Below are positions 13,086-55,775 of a stretch of 63,696 nucleotides of DNA, in pieces. The stretch covers positions 1 through 63,696 of the IMG/VR virus record IMGVR_UViG_3300049167_000064; one strand, 5' to 3'. Position numbers and translations under genes: made by a program. Positions within the stretch are counted from its first letter, which is position 1; each line of letters opens with the position of its first letter. The DNA comes from a virus (lineage: Duplodnaviria; Caudoviricetes). The notes under the pieces were generated by a model. The model saw only the letters and a program-made list of their open reading frames with translations, had not been told where the DNA came from and ran no database searches.

Positions 13086-13484
13086 ATGGACCTCAGCCTC
13101 AAGTCTGAGAGCTTCGGTCAGGACCGTCGGGATTGGCTGGGGTCCGCCCACGGCACCGAGGCTCCTGTCGGCGCAACCCTGGACGTCAGCAAGTTCACCG
13201 CTGGCACCCACTACCCGCAGGGCTTCATCAAGAGCGGCATTCCGCTCGGCAAGGTGACGGCTTCGGGCAAGTACGGCCCCTACGACAACGCAGCCGCGGA
13301 CGGCCGCGAAACCTGCGTGGGCTTCCTCTTCACGGACGTCAACGTCGTGAGCAGCCGTGGAGTCGCGTCGACGACCGTCGTCGGCTCGATGCTCCTTCAC
13401 TGCTTCATCCGTGAGGCGAAGCTCCCCGTCGCCATTGACGCTGCCGGCAAGACCGATCTCGGCGCCCGCGTCGTCTTCGTCTGA
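13086..13484 (+). CDS. Head decoration protein
   Basis: GIPLGKVTASGKYGPYD..A.DG; precedes major capsid gene. Confidence 0.85.
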   Translation: MDLSLKSESFGQDRRDWLGSAHGTEAPVGATLDVSKFTAGTHYPQGFIKSGIPLGKVTASGKYGPYDNAAADGRETCVGFLFTDVNVVSSRGVASTTVVGSMLLHCFIREAKLPVAIDAAGKTDLGARVVFV

Positions 13485-13499
13485 GAGAGGTAACCATCC

Positions 13500-14528
13500 A
13501 TGCAGCTCATTGCTGAGTACGCGACCCCTGCGGAGCTCACCGGCTACGCGCGTGAGGCGCTCCGGGACCGCGAAGAGAACCAGTTCGGTCTGAACCGCTG
13601 GCTCCCGAACGACACCATCAACGACCTCAGCTACCGGTTCACCCGGGGCGGAGGCGGTCTCGTGGACGCGGCTGTCTTCCGCGCCTACGACGCTGAGTCG
13701 GACATCGGCACCCGTCCGGGCGGGGCGCGCGTGAGCGGCGAACTGCCGCCCATCTCGCGGAAGATCCCCGTCGGCGAGTACGAGCAGATCCGCATGCGGA
13801 ACGTCGACACGCAGAACGCGGAGATTCGCGACGCCATGGAGGCTGACTCTGTTCGCCTCGTGAACGCCATTGCGGCCCGTATCGAACTGGCCCGTGGTGA
13901 CGCGCTCTTCAACGGCGCCGTGACGATCAACGAGAACCGCGTTCAGGCGTCCGTCGACTTCGGCCGGTCCGTCTCGCACTCCGTGACGGCAGCGATTGCC
14001 TGGAACAACACGGAAACCGCGCTCGCGTACGACTACTTCCAGACGTGGCTTGACGTCTACAACGAGACGAACGGCAGCCTGCCGGAGTACACGCTCATGT
14101 CTCGCAAGGCGTACAACTTCCTGCGCCGGAACAAGCAAATCCGCGAGCTGGCCTACCGTGGCGCGTCGACGGCCCCCACCGTTCTGACGAAGGACGACCT
14201 GAACAACATCCTGGGCGACTTCGACATTCCGCCGGTTGTCATCTACGACGCGAAGGTCAACGTCGACGGCGTGGCCACCCGCGTGACGCCGGAGGATAAG
14301 ATCCTCTTCCTGCCTGCGCAGGGTGACGCGGCCGGTAAGACGCTGTGGGGCGTTCCCGTGGAGGCGAACGACCCGCGCTACGGCCTCCAGGGTGACGGCG
14401 CCGGCGTGGCTGTCGGTGCCTACAAGTCGGAGGACCCGCAGACCGTGTGGACCCGTGCGACGGCCATTGCGCTTCCTGTCGTGGCGGCCCCGGACCTGAC
14501 CTTCGTGGCCGACGTCCTCACCTCCTGA
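13500..14528 (+). CDS. Major capsid protein (lambda gpE-like)
   Basis: ELPPISRK, VDFG, DPQTVWT..TAIALPV; synteny. Confidence 0.9.
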   Translation: MQLIAEYATPAELTGYAREALRDREENQFGLNRWLPNDTINDLSYRFTRGGGGLVDAAVFRAYDAESDIGTRPGGARVSGELPPISRKIPVGEYEQIRMRNVDTQNAEIRDAMEADSVRLVNAIAARIELARGDALFNGAVTINENRVQASVDFGRSVSHSVTAAIAWNNTETALAYDYFQTWLDVYNETNGSLPEYTLMSRKAYNFLRRNKQIRELAYRGASTAPTVLTKDDLNNILGDFDIPPVVIYDAKVNVDGVATRVTPEDKILFLPAQGDAAGKTLWGVPVEANDPRYGLQGDGAGVAVGAYKSEDPQTVWTRATAIALPVVAAPDLTFVADVLTS

Positions 14529-14551: not shown

Positions 14552-14800
14552 ATGGCCAGACTGGCAGCGTTCGTCCACGTGACGGACGACAAGGGGATGA
14601 GCCACGTGTTCGGCCCCGCCGACGAGGTCCCAGCGTGGGCCGCGTCGAAGATCACTAACCCGAAGGCGTGGGCGGAGCCGCCCTCCGCCAGTCGACTGGC
14701 GGAGCCCGCTCCGTCAGCGGCGCCGGCGAAGAAGGCAGCCGCGAAGCGCGCACCTGCGCGACGGAAGGCGGCACCCGATGGCACTGTTCACAGCGACTGA
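14552..14800 (+). CDS. Small head-associated protein
   Basis: GPADEVPAWAASKITNPKAW, basic tail; follows capsid gene. Confidence 0.75.
   Translation: MARLAAFVHVTDDKGMSHVFGPADEVPAWAASKITNPKAWAEPPSASRLAEPAPSAAPAKKAAAKRAPARRKAAPDGTVHSD
14683..14704. repeat. Dispersed palindrome (intragenic copy)
   Basis: CTCCGCCAGTCGACTGGCGGAG, perfect 22-bp palindrome. Confidence 0.75.
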
Positions 14801-52033: not shown

Positions 52034-52051
52034 CCGCTAGTCGACTAGCGG
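52034..52051. repeat. Dispersed palindrome
   Basis: CCGCTAGTCGACTAGCGG right after a stop codon. Confidence 0.85.
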
Positions 52052-52261: not shown

Positions 52262-53017
52262 ATGACCCCGACGCAGGTTACGAACGAGCTCATCATCTCG
52301 GCGCAGGGTGGAGACAGTGACGCGATGTGGCAGATCGTCGACGCCTACGAGGGCGTTCTCCGCCACGCCGTCCGCTCCGTCGCTCCCTCCGCCAATCAGG
52401 AGGACGCGGAAGACCTCCTCCAAGAGGCACGCGCGGTGCTGATCCAGCACGTCCGCGACTACCGCACCGACGGCAGTCCTGCGCAGCTGAGCACGTTCGC
52501 GCACCACACCATCCGCCGTACCGTGGCGGAGGCGTGGGTCCGCACTTCCTGTGCGCTGTCCGTCGACCCGACGACCGCACTTCGCGTCAAGCGTGCGCTC
52601 TGGACCACGGAGGGCGACGTCGACGGAGCGTGGATGATCGTCTCCTCCGACGCCAACTCGAAGCGCAGGCTGTCCCGGGAAGTGTTCCTCGCGACGGTTG
52701 AGGCCATGGCGGACGTGGACTGCCTGGACGCTCCGGCCGGCGAAGACGGTCTGACGCTCGCGGAGGTCATCCCGGACGCGGACTCCGACTTCACCGACCC
52801 GACGGAGCGCCGGGAGCTGGCCCGCTACCTCCTCCGCGAGATCCCGCAGCGCCAGGCATACGCGCTCCGGGCGTTCTACGGAATCGGCATGACGCAGATG
52901 CCGGACCACGACGTCGCGGCCGATCTGGAGCTGAAGCTCGTCGCTCTTCGCCAGCTGCGGGCGCGCGGCGTCAAGTACGCGCAGAAGGTTGCAGCCTCCC
53001 AGGCACTGGCTGCGTGA
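52262..53017 (+). CDS. Sigma-70 family RNA polymerase sigma factor
   Basis: AQGGD..A, DAEDLLQEA (region 2), LDAP, region 4 HTH-like C-terminus. Confidence 0.82.
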   Translation: MTPTQVTNELIISAQGGDSDAMWQIVDAYEGVLRHAVRSVAPSANQEDAEDLLQEARAVLIQHVRDYRTDGSPAQLSTFAHHTIRRTVAEAWVRTSCALSVDPTTALRVKRALWTTEGDVDGAWMIVSSDANSKRRLSREVFLATVEAMADVDCLDAPAGEDGLTLAEVIPDADSDFTDPTERRELARYLLREIPQRQAYALRAFYGIGMTQMPDHDVAADLELKLVALRQLRARGVKYAQKVAASQALAA

Positions 53018-53243: not shown

Positions 53244-53993
53244 ATGTCTGAGTACGTAGCCACGTGCACCGCCAGCCGCCACGACACCATCACCGCTGTA
53301 GGCGACGGAACAACCATCGAGCTCGCTGCCCGCTCCCACGGAGAGCGCAAGATGGAGACCTTCCTCTCCGCGGACAAGGCCCGCACCTTCGCGCGCGGCA
53401 TCCTGGCCCTGGCCGACAGGATCGACGGGGGAGAGGAGAAGGGCGAGGCGGAGTTCAGCGACACGCCCCCCGTCGGCACGCGTGTCCGCGTACTGGAGGC
53501 GTCCGGCATTCCAGCGGCCCGGGGAATGCTTGGCACGGTCTACGACCTCACCGACCAGCCGGGACGCCTGAAGGTGCTGATGGATGAGCCGTGGGACGGC
53601 TTCGGCTATCACAAGGTTTACGCGGACCGGTGGGAGATCGTCGACGAGCCGGCGCGACCCGTCAAGGTTGGGGACCGGGTGCGTGTCGTGCGGAACGCCT
53701 ACGACTACGAGGACCGTGGCTACGTCGGCCGCGTTGGCACCCTGAAGGTCATCGACACGGATGAGCAGCCGTACAGGGTGACCTTCGACGACGATGACTA
53801 CTGGTGGTGTGCGGAGGTCGAACTCGTCGACGAGGCACCCGACGCCGTATCGGCCCCGGAAGCGCCCGCCGTCGACAAGCCGGCCGACGAGCGCGAGACC
53901 TTCATCCGGCGGGCCGCGGACCTGGCGTCGGAGCTCGAGATCTTCGATGACAACGCCATCGTCTCGATGGCCCGCTTCCTGGCGGGGGAGTGA
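53244..53993 (+). CDS. Hypothetical protein with SH3-like repeats, C-terminus MARFLAGE
   Basis: Paralogous to 41427 and 53990 products. Confidence 0.75.
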   Translation: MSEYVATCTASRHDTITAVGDGTTIELAARSHGERKMETFLSADKARTFARGILALADRIDGGEEKGEAEFSDTPPVGTRVRVLEASGIPAARGMLGTVYDLTDQPGRLKVLMDEPWDGFGYHKVYADRWEIVDEPARPVKVGDRVRVVRNAYDYEDRGYVGRVGTLKVIDTDEQPYRVTFDDDDYWWCAEVELVDEAPDAVSAPEAPAVDKPADERETFIRRAADLASELEIFDDNAIVSMARFLAGE

Positions 53994-54292
53994 CGATGGC
54001 TGACATCAAGATCGGTGACCGGGTGCGGATCGTGTCGGAGTACACCGACCGTGCTGGCCGGCACGTAGGTCGGCTGGGTTCCGTGCGGCACGTCGACCCC
54101 GACGACCGCGAACTCCGTTACAGCGTCCTCATGGACGGCGACGAGGAATCCGATTGGTTCCATGAGGTGGAACTCGTCAGCGGGGTCGCGAATCGTGAAG
54201 CGCATGTCACCCGCGCGAAGGAGCTCCTGACGGGCACTCCGCACACGGTGGAGGACATCATCCGCATGGCCCGCTTCCTGGCCGGCGAGTAG
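53990..54292 (+). CDS. Paralog of the C-terminal half of the preceding gene
   Basis: IKIGDRVRIV...EVELV...MARFLAGE. Confidence 0.75.
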   Translation: MTMADIKIGDRVRIVSEYTDRAGRHVGRLGSVRHVDPDDRELRYSVLMDGDEESDWFHEVELVSGVANREAHVTRAKELLTGTPHTVEDIIRMARFLAGE

Positions 54293-54333
54293 GACGACAG
54301 GGCCCGGGGCGCTTGCTCCGGGCCCTTCGTGTT

Positions 54334-54394
54334 GCTCCGCTAGTCGACTAGCGGAGCTAGGGGGTTGTGTCGGCCGACCAATGTGTGTCATAGT
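54334..54394 (+). promoter_or_regulatory. 24-bp palindrome plus class A promoter
   Basis: GCTCCGCTAGTCGACTAGCGGAGC, then TTGTGT-N18-CATAGT with GTCGGCCGAC box. Confidence 0.75.
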
Positions 54395-54431
54395 GGAGAT
54401 CCGCCAGGGACTAACGGAACTGGCGGAACAA

Positions 54432-54641
54432 CTCAACAGGGAGCGGCAGCAAGGCGAGAACGACTCTGGTGGAGTCAAGAGGCGCCCCGTAAGGGAGACG
54501 TCGCAACGGCGTGCTGGGTAAGAACCTTGGCAGTCACGGTGACCCGTAGCCCATACGGTAGGGCAGGGTGTGGCTGGAGGGATGGATACTCCAAACCAGG
54601 CTGAGGACATGAATCGCTAAGCACCACCGCTCCCTGTTGGG
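54432..54641 (+). ncRNA. Candidate ~210-nt structured RNA
   Basis: 15-bp closing helix 54432-54446/54627-54641 enclosing several hairpins. Confidence 0.65.
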
Positions 54642-54676
54642 GACTCCACGGACAGGCCGAGACGAGGGAGCCGTCA

Positions 54677-55051
54677 ATGAGCTACCAGCGGGCGCACCGC
54701 TACTGCGGCGGAAAGGGTGAGGTGCCCCGGGCGTCCGGTATCCCTGGCTTCTGCTTCGCATGCAACGGGACCGGAAAGATCACCGTGTACACCGCAGCCG
54801 AGAAGGCTGTTCGACAGGCTGAACGTAGCCGGTGGGACTCCACCCGAGAGCTGGTGCGGTCCCACGCCCGGAAGATCACGGCCCCTGACGGTGTGCCTTC
54901 CCTGACGTTCTCGCTTGACGTCCGCGCCGGCTTCGAGACGCTGGCCGAACGAGAGCCAGACCGCTTGGAGAAGTTGTACGCCTCGTTGGACGCTGGCCGT
55001 ATCGACGACGTCGTTTATGCCCTGTACGAGTACCGCAAGGGTCACGCGTAG
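54677..55051 (+). CDS. Hypothetical protein with DnaJ-like CxxCxGxG motif
   Basis: GGGAG RBS; CFACNGTG. Confidence 0.75.
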   Translation: MSYQRAHRYCGGKGEVPRASGIPGFCFACNGTGKITVYTAAEKAVRQAERSRWDSTRELVRSHARKITAPDGVPSLTFSLDVRAGFETLAEREPDRLEKLYASLDAGRIDDVVYALYEYRKGHA

Positions 55052-55112
55052 CCGAAACGCCCTCCGGGGCGTCGGGTGAGGAATGGTCTCCCACCCCTGA
55101 CGAGGCAGACCA
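55051..55112 (+). ncRNA. Type II hammerhead ribozyme 1 (predicted cleavage after C55073)
   Basis: GCC-GAAAC-stem III-GTC-stem I-CTGACGA-GGC; loop TGGTCT pairs with downstream AGACCA. Confidence 0.88.
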
Positions 55113-55123
55113 CTGGAGGAGAG

Positions 55124-55288
55124 ATGAAGGTCAAGGCGATGAAGCGGACGTTCCTCCGGACGCACCGGTTCGGGATGTTGCGCCAGGCGGACGAGAAGCG
55201 CAGGGCCGGCGCGGAGCGCAACGTCCGCAGCCCGCAGGGGCGGGAGCTGATCGCGTCGAACATGGTCTACCGCAAGCGCTACGCGTAG
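55124..55288 (+). CDS. Small basic protein (54 aa) between ribozymes
   Basis: GGAGGAGAG-ATG. Confidence 0.7.
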   Translation: MKVKAMKRTFLRTHRFGMLRQADEKRRAGAERNVRSPQGRELIASNMVYRKRYA

Positions 55289-55350
55289 CCGAAACGCCCT
55301 CCGGGGCGTCGCGCGGGAGATGGCCTCCCGCCCCTGATGAGGCAGGCCGT
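55288..55350 (+). ncRNA. Type II hammerhead ribozyme 2 (predicted cleavage after C55310)
   Basis: GCC-GAAAC-stem III-GTC-stem I-CTGATGA-GGC; loop ATGGCCT pairs with AGGCCGT. Confidence 0.88.
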
Positions 55351-55360
55351 AGGAGGAGAG

Positions 55361-55665: not shown

Positions 55666-55742
55666 GCCCCGCTACGGCATCGCCCGATCTACCCGGCACC
55701 CCCAGTGCCGGCGGGCGCGCGGTTCGAATCCGCGGCGGGGTA
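55666..55742 (+). ncRNA. D-armless tRNA-like element
   Basis: Acceptor GCCCCGC/GCGGGGT, U8-A9, T arm CGCGG-TTCGAAT-CCGCG. Confidence 0.7.
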
Positions 55743-55775
55743 CTCGAAGCACCATCCATCGACGGAGAGGACGTC

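Follow-up and report, generated by a model that had tools for sequence, protein, structure and literature searches.

A 210-nt intergenic element at positions 54432-54641 (plus strand) of a soil actinophage genome is very probably a conserved, strand-specific structured RNA of a new family. The stretch of DNA analyzed (here called the window) is a complete virus record of 63.7 kb (63,696 nt), with about 65% G+C and nearly all of its genes on the plus strand, and it carries five tRNA genes (Rfam 15, gathering score). The original prediction, made from the sequence alone, had placed a novel structured phage ncRNA at these same coordinates, and this is borne out by the absence of any Rfam 15 match to the element and by covariation among three homologs on the plus strand. 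As candidate functions it put forward a protein decoy, a regulator or a ribozyme. It did not recognize that the element is positioned in an mRNA 5' leader, nor that it is an optional insertion. Taken as a whole, our best explanation is a structured leader RNA of this new family that acts as an autonomous RNA, for which we put the probability at roughly 0.4.

The element lies within a 384-nt gap between a 100-aa gene (ending at 54292) and a gene for a 124-aa zinc-ribbon protein (starting at 54677), and the features of this region are listed in Table 1. Two homologs were found. The first, L004 (2768-2970), has the same place relative to the zinc-ribbon gene and is carried by a prophage-like contig belonging to a Streptomyces genome (G001). 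The second, L007, was retrieved by DNA-pattern scans and covers 13358-13571 on the minus strand of a 27.7-kb record. The copies are 76% identical overall, with near-invariant loops and junctions.

Table 1. Features of the leader and of the structured element (window coordinates)
Feature	Position	Strand	Basis
Terminator-like GC hairpin closing the upstream gene 53990-54292	54299-54326	+	Inverted repeat; scan for terminator-like sites
Perfect 24-bp palindrome with 18-bp core CCGCTAGTCGACTAGCGG	54334-54357	strand-neutral	Inverted-repeat search
Promoter-like module TTGTGTCGGCCGAC...CATAGT	54365-54395	+	Repetition in the phage; conserved leader start CGCCAGGGACTNACGGA
5' hairpin of the leader (UCCGCCAG...CUGGCGGA)	54400-54427	+	MFE and centroid folds of 54400-54700
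P1, 5' strand (AGGGAG core invariant)	54432-54446	+	Consensus, pair count, inverted repeat
P2, 5' strand GCGA	54454-54457	+	C-G to U-A swap in L007
P3 hairpin GACUCU-GGU-GGAGUC, invariant in 3/3 sequences	54462-54476	+	Alignment, consensus
P4 variable hairpin (base GGCG/CGUC covarying; tip CCC-GUAA-GGG in the window only)	54479-54504	+	Alignment, consensus
P5, 97-nt arm of five stacked helices (consensus helices 5-9)	54507-54603	+	Double-sided changes in helices 6, 7 and 8
Junction strand AGGAYRUGAA, P5 to P2	54604-54613	+	Alignment
P2, 3' strand UCGC	54614-54617	+	Consensus, pair count
P1, 3' strand (CUCCCU core invariant)	54627-54641	+	Consensus, pair count
Shine-Dalgarno GAGGGAG (54664-54670) and ATG of the zinc-ribbon gene 54677-55051	54664-54679	+	ORF and Shine-Dalgarno reading

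Fold, covariation and strand

A consensus structure was derived from the three sequences (window, L004 and L007) with RNAalifold, together with a model-guided alignment. From the ends inwards it comprises a 15-bp terminal helix (P1), a variable, A/C-rich internal loop, P2 (GCGA/UCGC), and a four-way junction with the hairpins P3, P4 and P5, the strands of the junction being GAAC, AAGA, GCAA and AGGAYRUGAA. At the tip of the long P5 arm is the invariant loop AUACGGUA, and its internal loops AGAA/AUGGA and CAAACCAG are invariant as well. The terminal inverted repeat that makes up P1 has 13 perfect pairs, one U.G and one C-G pair. A terminal helix of this length had been predicted; all 15 of its pairs are kept in the homologs and five of them are changed on both sides. 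While the AGGGAG/CUCCCU core of P1 is invariant, six of the nine other pairs vary across the three sequences.

Standard pairs account for 98.9% of the 188 pair cells. Changes on both sides were found in 12 pairs, compared with 4.9 ± 1.6 in 500 shuffles that disregard kinship (two of the three sequences are 86% identical), and none of the shuffles reached 12. Six controls in which the pairing was slid gave 0-2 double-sided pairs each. The changes are distributed over six of the nine helices: five pairs in P1, one in P2, two in P4 and four in three helices of P5. P3, helix 9 and the junction strands never vary in these sequences and are, therefore, neither supported nor contradicted by covariation.

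Several internal helices had also been proposed in the original prediction. The CAGTCAC/GTGGCTG helix with nested GCCC/GGGC is upheld by an A-U to U-A swap, and a further helix, ACCC/GGGU, lies between the two and shows a C-G to U-A swap. The suggested long-range pairing GGCGA/TCGCT also gains a C-G to U-A swap, but its outermost G.U pair breaks in L007. The GACTC/GAGTC helix is present but invariant and thus uninformative, and the CCC-GTAA-GGG hairpin does exist in the window, at the tip of the variable hairpin, but its GNRA loop is not conserved (the loop of L004 is AAA). Two other helices had to be discarded, ACGTC/GGCGT (86.7% of cells paired, two breaks) and GGAG/CTCC (counted as GAG/CTC; 88.9% paired, one break), neither of which covaries and both of which clash with covarying pairs. 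The covarying alternative pairs GGGUA with UACUC and CCUU with AGGG across the arm, giving one continuous arm of about 97 nt.

The minimum free energy of the element is -92.3 kcal/mol, against -75.5 ± 4.5 kcal/mol for dinucleotide shuffles (z = -3.71), and none of 200 shuffles was as good. Likewise, a perfect inverted repeat of at least 13 nt occurred in 0/200 dinucleotide shuffles of the 471-nt region 54250-54720. The reverse strand also folds well (z = -4.19), so that folding energy alone cannot assign the strand. The pairing itself can: 23 of the 188 pair cells are G.U and become C.A on the minus strand, where pairing drops to 87.2% as opposed to 98.9% on the plus strand, and this fixes the plus strand as the folding strand. 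The flanking genes are read from this same strand, in keeping with an RNA.

These data bear on whether the fold could be a feature of the DNA, such as a MITE, a single-strand origin or a recombination site, or a chance product of GC-rich sequence. Terminal inverted repeats of 13-15 nt and good folding of both strands would suit such an origin, but the strand-specific G.U cells do not, the covariation extends beyond the ends to the internal helices, each genome has one copy, and no shuffle attained either the fold or the repeat. We consider this the least probable of the explanations weighed here. A transposon remnant or MITE was also rejected as a candidate on the grounds of single copies and of the L002/L004 junction described below, which has no target-site duplication. 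An open reading frame of 79 aa (54365-54604) overlaps the element, and was rejected as a gene: indels in L004 and L007 break its frame, and it fails the codon-position filter (GC3 > 0.80, GC2 < 0.62) that most of the listed genes pass.

Leader context, gain and loss

Two of the motifs between the upstream gene and the element are repeated in the phage. The palindromic core CCGCTAGTCGACTAGCGG has nine matches in the window with up to three mismatches, where 0.03 are expected, at 14685, 29594, 34524, 39115, 48802, 52034, 53199, 54337 and 57787. Surroundings were inspected for the copies at 52034, 53199, 54337 and 57787, and these are intergenic gaps. The palindrome may be a repeated operator, a stoperator-like site or a hairpin terminator of the phage. 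The second motif, TTGTGTCGGCCGAC...CATAGT, has ten matches with up to two mismatches against 1.05 expected. The module with its palindromic core, TTGTGTCGGCCGAC(ACAA)...CATAGT, is seen at 54365, 57040 and 57825 (also 51293, 51326 and 39487). Three copies can be aligned through the first ~30 nt of the leader, and the conserved leader start CGCCAGGGACTNACGGA follows the module in three copies. From its repetition, the module is probably a promoter of the phage that overlaps an operator; a scan for the sigma-70 consensus detected no promoter there. A gene for a sigma-70-like protein is located nearby, at 52262-53017 (Sigma70_r2, E = 5.7e-08).

In the two other aligned copies, the module is followed by a leader of ~35-45 nt and then by a Shine-Dalgarno sequence and ATG. 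Judged from this alignment, the element is inserted in such a short leader, downstream of the short 5' hairpin. In the window and L004 it begins ~30-40 nt past the promoter-like module, and at all three loci it stands on the sense strand, 20-35 nt ahead of the first Shine-Dalgarno sequence and its start codon. No terminator was found between the element and the Shine-Dalgarno sequence of the zinc-ribbon gene by the terminator scan. The sequencing runs listed as containing the sequence were three of DNA and none of RNA. In one of the DNA runs (X2), cover ends near 54394-54439 and no contig spans the element.

Among nine neighboring proteins, Pfam recognized a sigma-70-like protein and DUF7169, and no RNA-related domain. 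The two upstream genes, 53244-53993 and 53990-54292, end in the same C-terminal peptide (MARFLAGE) and look like paralogs; their weak NfeD-like and KOW-like matches are under the Pfam cut-offs.

The element is rare. A scan of viral contigs guided by the zinc-ribbon protein gave four loci (L002, L003, L004 and L005), of which only L004 has the element. In L002 and L003, the zinc-ribbon gene is present without it, and the covariance model of the family (R1) finds nothing. L005 has only a partial, 58%-identical zinc-ribbon match, and no element was detected in the inspected upstream stretch or by R1. A second scan of this type returned three loci, none of them new. Six DNA-pattern scans of viral contigs found only the L004 contig (as L006) and, in five of the six, L007. 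From genome contigs, the pattern scan produced seven stretches, one of them real (L014, again the L004 contig) and six without an R1 score, and none of seven stretches from metagenome contigs was confirmed by R1. There was no blastn match to GenBank phages at E ≤ 1e-5 (only chance matches of 19-34 nt at E ≤ 10), no match of the element to plasmids, and no tblastn match of the zinc-ribbon protein to GenBank phages. Within the genus of G001, R1 hit one of 151 genomes, G001 itself, and blastn hit two of 401, G001 and a genome with one 38-nt match (14.1 bits with R1); in the comparison for G001 host similarity there were only matches of up to 24 nt at E > 0.4. The family is real but rare, the search for homologs having yielded two with a conserved fold, but only three members in all within the databases searched.

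The three records have little else in common. Of the 205 ORFs of the window, only the zinc-ribbon gene (73%) exceeds 35% identity across them; besides it, there are a few weak matches at or below 35%. Between the window and L004, identity is highest for the element (86%), followed by the zinc-ribbon gene (75%), the spacer (64%) and the 100 nt upstream (58%). In L007, the element is located 544-757 nt from the contig end; the 543 nt before it contain no convincing ORF, and 20 nt after it come a 51-aa gene and then small genes unrelated to those of the window. No partner gene is common to the three neighborhoods.

Gain or loss of the element can be seen by comparing L002 with L004. They have near-identical terminator and promoter-like regions, which differ from those of the window, and are distinguished by a clean indel after GGCGGACAA that comprises the element plus 8 nt (~211 nt), with no target-site duplication at the junction. 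The comparison indicates that the element is an optional module that enters or leaves, as one clean insertion, a leader that is otherwise short.

Such an insertion might also be selfish, an intron-like or intervening-sequence-like mobile segment that is excised or tolerated and gives the phage no benefit. Intervening sequences excised by RNase III have ends joined by a long helix, and a long helix joins both ends of this element too; its clean presence or absence at one point of an otherwise collinear leader, and its occurrence in unrelated genomes and contexts, would agree with mobility. We nevertheless regard a selfish insertion as improbable. Only a single copy is present in each of the window, the 92.7-kb record, the 9.1-Mb host genome and the 27.7-kb record, the L002/L004 junction bears no duplicated target site, and the near-invariant loops and junctions in copies that are 76% identical point to selection on more than a hairpin. 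The group I and group II intron models do not match. A group I intron was specifically rejected, with no match to RF00028 and with ends that are paired together; a U is usual before a group I 5' splice site, but the upstream flank ends in A in both the window and L004.

Comparison with known RNA families

The window was compared with the 4227 models of Rfam 15, including RNase P, tmRNA, 6S, Y RNA/YrlA, raiA, group I and II introns, riboswitches and self-cleaving ribozymes. At the gathering score there were seven matches (the five tRNAs and two type II hammerheads), and none in 54293-54676. At E ≤ 10, the 471-nt region gave only isrH (9.7 bits) and SOX2OT (7.9 bits), both meaningless, 224 nt around the element gave no match, and the L007 homolog gave one lncRNA match (16.3 bits, E = 4.1); there was thus no family at the gathering score and no credible one at E ≤ 10. 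ARAGORN called six genes in the window, none overlapping the element, which excludes a tRNA or tmRNA. The view that the element fits neither RNase P, tmRNA nor a group I intron therefore stands.

A description of the RNA was not found in the literature; a text search cannot find a sequence motif, and the tables of Fremin et al. 2023 may list it. That survey (PMC10690425) reports 10,006 candidate structured RNAs from viral sequences. The element is new as a fold and as a family, and orphan structured RNAs that head early operons of phages have precedents.

In shape only, the element resembles the msr-msd of retrons, with a1/a2-like terminal repeats, two short hairpins and a 97-nt arm, and it is borne by phages and prophages. 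The msd stem of retrons is usually variable, whereas the long arm of the element is its most conserved part. A retron ncRNA was rejected: no reverse transcriptase (PF00078, E ≤ 1) was detected in any of the three element-bearing records, by a search that found matches in 4 of 14 known genomes used as a control.

RNase P RNA deserves closer comparison. The window element and the RNase P RNA of the Streptomyces genome of L004 (L039, 1501-1906) have five identical strings of 11, 9, 9, 8 and 8 nt in common, part of which is AGGGCAGGGTG and, with one base between, TGGCT. The number of common 8-mers (10-11) compares with a mean of 2.0-2.4 in 1500 random 406-nt segments, a fraction of 0.002 and 0.0007 of which reach it. 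It exceeds the counts for all 109 windows of the 23S rRNA of the same genome, for tmRNA (0-1) and for antisense controls (2-4). For L007 there are five common 8-mers, a number that is reached by 19% of rRNA windows. This excess, from a post hoc comparison, is offered as a lead and not as a finding.

From the strings, one could suppose that the element mimics RNase P RNA or derives from it, and that it might, for instance, be a decoy for factors that bind pre-tRNA or for the RNase P protein. Several of them fall in invariant blocks of the element, and its 5' end has a terminal helix, then a short helix and a hairpin, the P1-P2-P3 order that is also found in RNase P RNA. The element is, however, about half as long, and the strings are not collinear and lie in non-equivalent helix strands, to which are added the post hoc nature of the comparison and the weak excess for L007. 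RNase P RNA as such was rejected, with no match to the covariance models (RF00010, RF00011) at E ≤ 10 and neither a long-range P4 helix nor a CR-I/CR-V motif evident. Mimicry of RNase P RNA is, on this balance, very improbable.

The operon downstream of the element contains the two type II hammerheads, at 55050-55114 and 55287-55351 (50.0 and 47.1 bits; gathering score 37). Each is precisely bracketed by the stop codon of a small gene and the GGAGGAGAGATG ribosome site of the gene that follows. They form two 101-nt units with 91% identity, which takes in the final codons of the genes before them, and look like repeated intergenic cassettes for mRNA processing. L005, which is related to this locus, has two hammerheads as well. 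In a soil metagenome run (X3), one contig joins 55043 to 55281, skipping 237 nt that correspond to one unit of hammerhead plus small ORF, and further contigs, from each of the three DNA runs, align to 55080-55288 at <90-95% identity but have other flanking sequences. The copy number and context of the unit between the hammerheads therefore seem to vary, the joint being represented by a single contig. In the same operon, a tRNA-Gly(CCC) called by ARAGORN at 55666-55743 was rejected after the Rfam tRNA model stayed silent both at the gathering score and at E ≤ 1; the call is either spurious or reflects a tRNA-like element of unusual form.

New ribozyme classes have been found close to known ones, and the hammerheads, 410 and 650 nt downstream of the element, raise the question of whether the early transcript is processed by the element itself, as a new RNA with self-cleaving or other catalytic activity. 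Its complex junction with invariant unpaired purines would be compatible with catalysis. The association is not constant, though: L004 and L007 have the element without a hammerhead, while L005 has hammerheads without the element. With 210 nt it is also much larger than most self-cleaving classes, it bears no likeness to any ribozyme family in Rfam, and we rate a catalytic role as quite improbable.

Possible roles of the element

The element would be transcribed within the first ~240 nt of an early or middle operon of the phage, preceded by the promoter-like module with its short 5' hairpin and followed by the first gene's ribosome-binding site. A 15-bp clamp (P1) and the short P2 would close the four-way junction, leaving one peripheral hairpin free to vary, and the module occurs ahead of unrelated genes in unrelated phages. 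The folded domain may act as an autonomous, stable, nuclease-resistant ncRNA derived from the leader, binding a host or phage macromolecule. It would be made in quantity from the early promoter, like the leader ncRNAs of L5 and D29, and would not be a switch for the downstream gene.

A clamp of 15 bp that joins both ends is typical of stable RNAs. The near-invariant junctions and loops, in copies that are only 76% identical, suggest a tertiary fold or a binding surface and not a mere hairpin, and, with no downstream gene conserved, a switch for one particular gene is less likely. Action in trans through the binding of a factor is proposed tentatively, at less than even odds. There is no terminator or known processing site before the downstream gene, so the element may never exist as a free RNA.

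The alternative is that the element acts in cis, as a leader that controls its own mRNA by way of translation, of protection of the 5' end from RNase, or of antitermination resembling that of put. Its placement past the promoter-like module and shortly before the Shine-Dalgarno sequence, on the sense strand and with no intervening terminator, is what would be expected of such a leader. Positions 54626-54635, in the region of the 3' strand of P1, are 90% complementary to 54665-54674, which contains the Shine-Dalgarno sequence. In one variant, CUCCCU of the 3' strand would pair with the downstream Shine-Dalgarno sequence, while AGGGAG of the 5' strand would be a look-alike of that sequence that occupies CUCCCU; expression of the operon would then respond to a ligand or factor that perturbs the junction. 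The invariance of this very core, in a helix whose other pairs mostly vary, speaks in favor. The combination of an invariant junction and a variable peripheral hairpin is typical of ligand-binding leaders (riboswitches), and the element shares with them the multi-helix junction, the invariant junction nucleotides, the variable peripheral hairpin and a closing helix whose 3' strand is complementary to the Shine-Dalgarno sequence.

Other features speak against a cis role. P1, with 15 bp, forms first in transcription and is too stable to switch; the alternative hairpin, with 9 of 10 positions paired, cannot compete with it at equilibrium, and P1 is formed when each of the three extended sequences is folded, in the MFE as well as the centroid structure. 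The downstream genes differ, the element is optional, sister loci have the same gene without it, and no riboswitch, leader or antiterminator family of Rfam matches. For protection of the end, a short 5' hairpin is already there. Control in cis is a possible but rather unlikely role. The complementarity of the 3' strand of P1 to the Shine-Dalgarno region fits a cis role equally well, and the autonomous and cis roles are near-equal readings, of which the autonomous RNA is slightly favored.

Two known systems resemble the element in position. The put antiterminator RNA of HK022 lies directly after the early promoters, needs no dedicated phage protein, and consists of two hairpins in ~70 nt. Compared by description only, it shares with the element (210 nt) the placement of a structured RNA directly after an early promoter. 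The leader region at Pleft of L5, about 500 nt long, is the second case, and we know of no published fold for it. According to the report on the Cluster A mycobacteriophages L5, D29 and StarStuff (PMC5712189), highly abundant and stable non-coding transcripts that are toxic to the host are made from the Pleft early promoter. These Cluster A RNAs are like the element in being non-coding actinophage RNAs just past an early lytic promoter and before the first early genes; the L007 copy, ~540 nt from the contig end, similarly stands ahead of a string of small genes. They are not homologous to it, since R1 without filters gave at best 3.9 bits on L5 50300-52297. With no similarity to R1 at the right end of L5, the precedent is one of position only.

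To our knowledge, there are few structured RNAs of ~200 nt that combine multi-way junctions with near-invariant nucleotides within them, and those that are understood are ribozymes, riboswitches or protein scaffolds. The present element is optional, mobile between unrelated actinophages, and found at the very start of an early transcript, the site at which phages place functions for host takeover and counter-defense. It is conceivable, though unlikely, that it is the founding member of a new class of large, functional RNAs in phages, carried as an optional module and acting as an early decoy for a host factor (possibly a protein that is related to RNase P, to RNA processing or to defense) or as a new ribozyme; the RNase P-related target is suggested by the unexplained excess of common strings.

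If the element only stabilizes or tunes its mRNA, it would be a modest addition to the many orphan RNA motifs of phages. Because one carrier, a prophage-like contig, belongs to a Streptomyces strain that can be cultured, the matter is open to direct experiment. Should the element bind a host factor or catalyze a reaction, it would be an RNA-based tool in the conflict between phages and hosts of the Streptomyces type, and if the reading as an early decoy or ribozyme is true, it would be carried in the manner of protein anti-defense genes, as an optional accessory at the head of the early operon.
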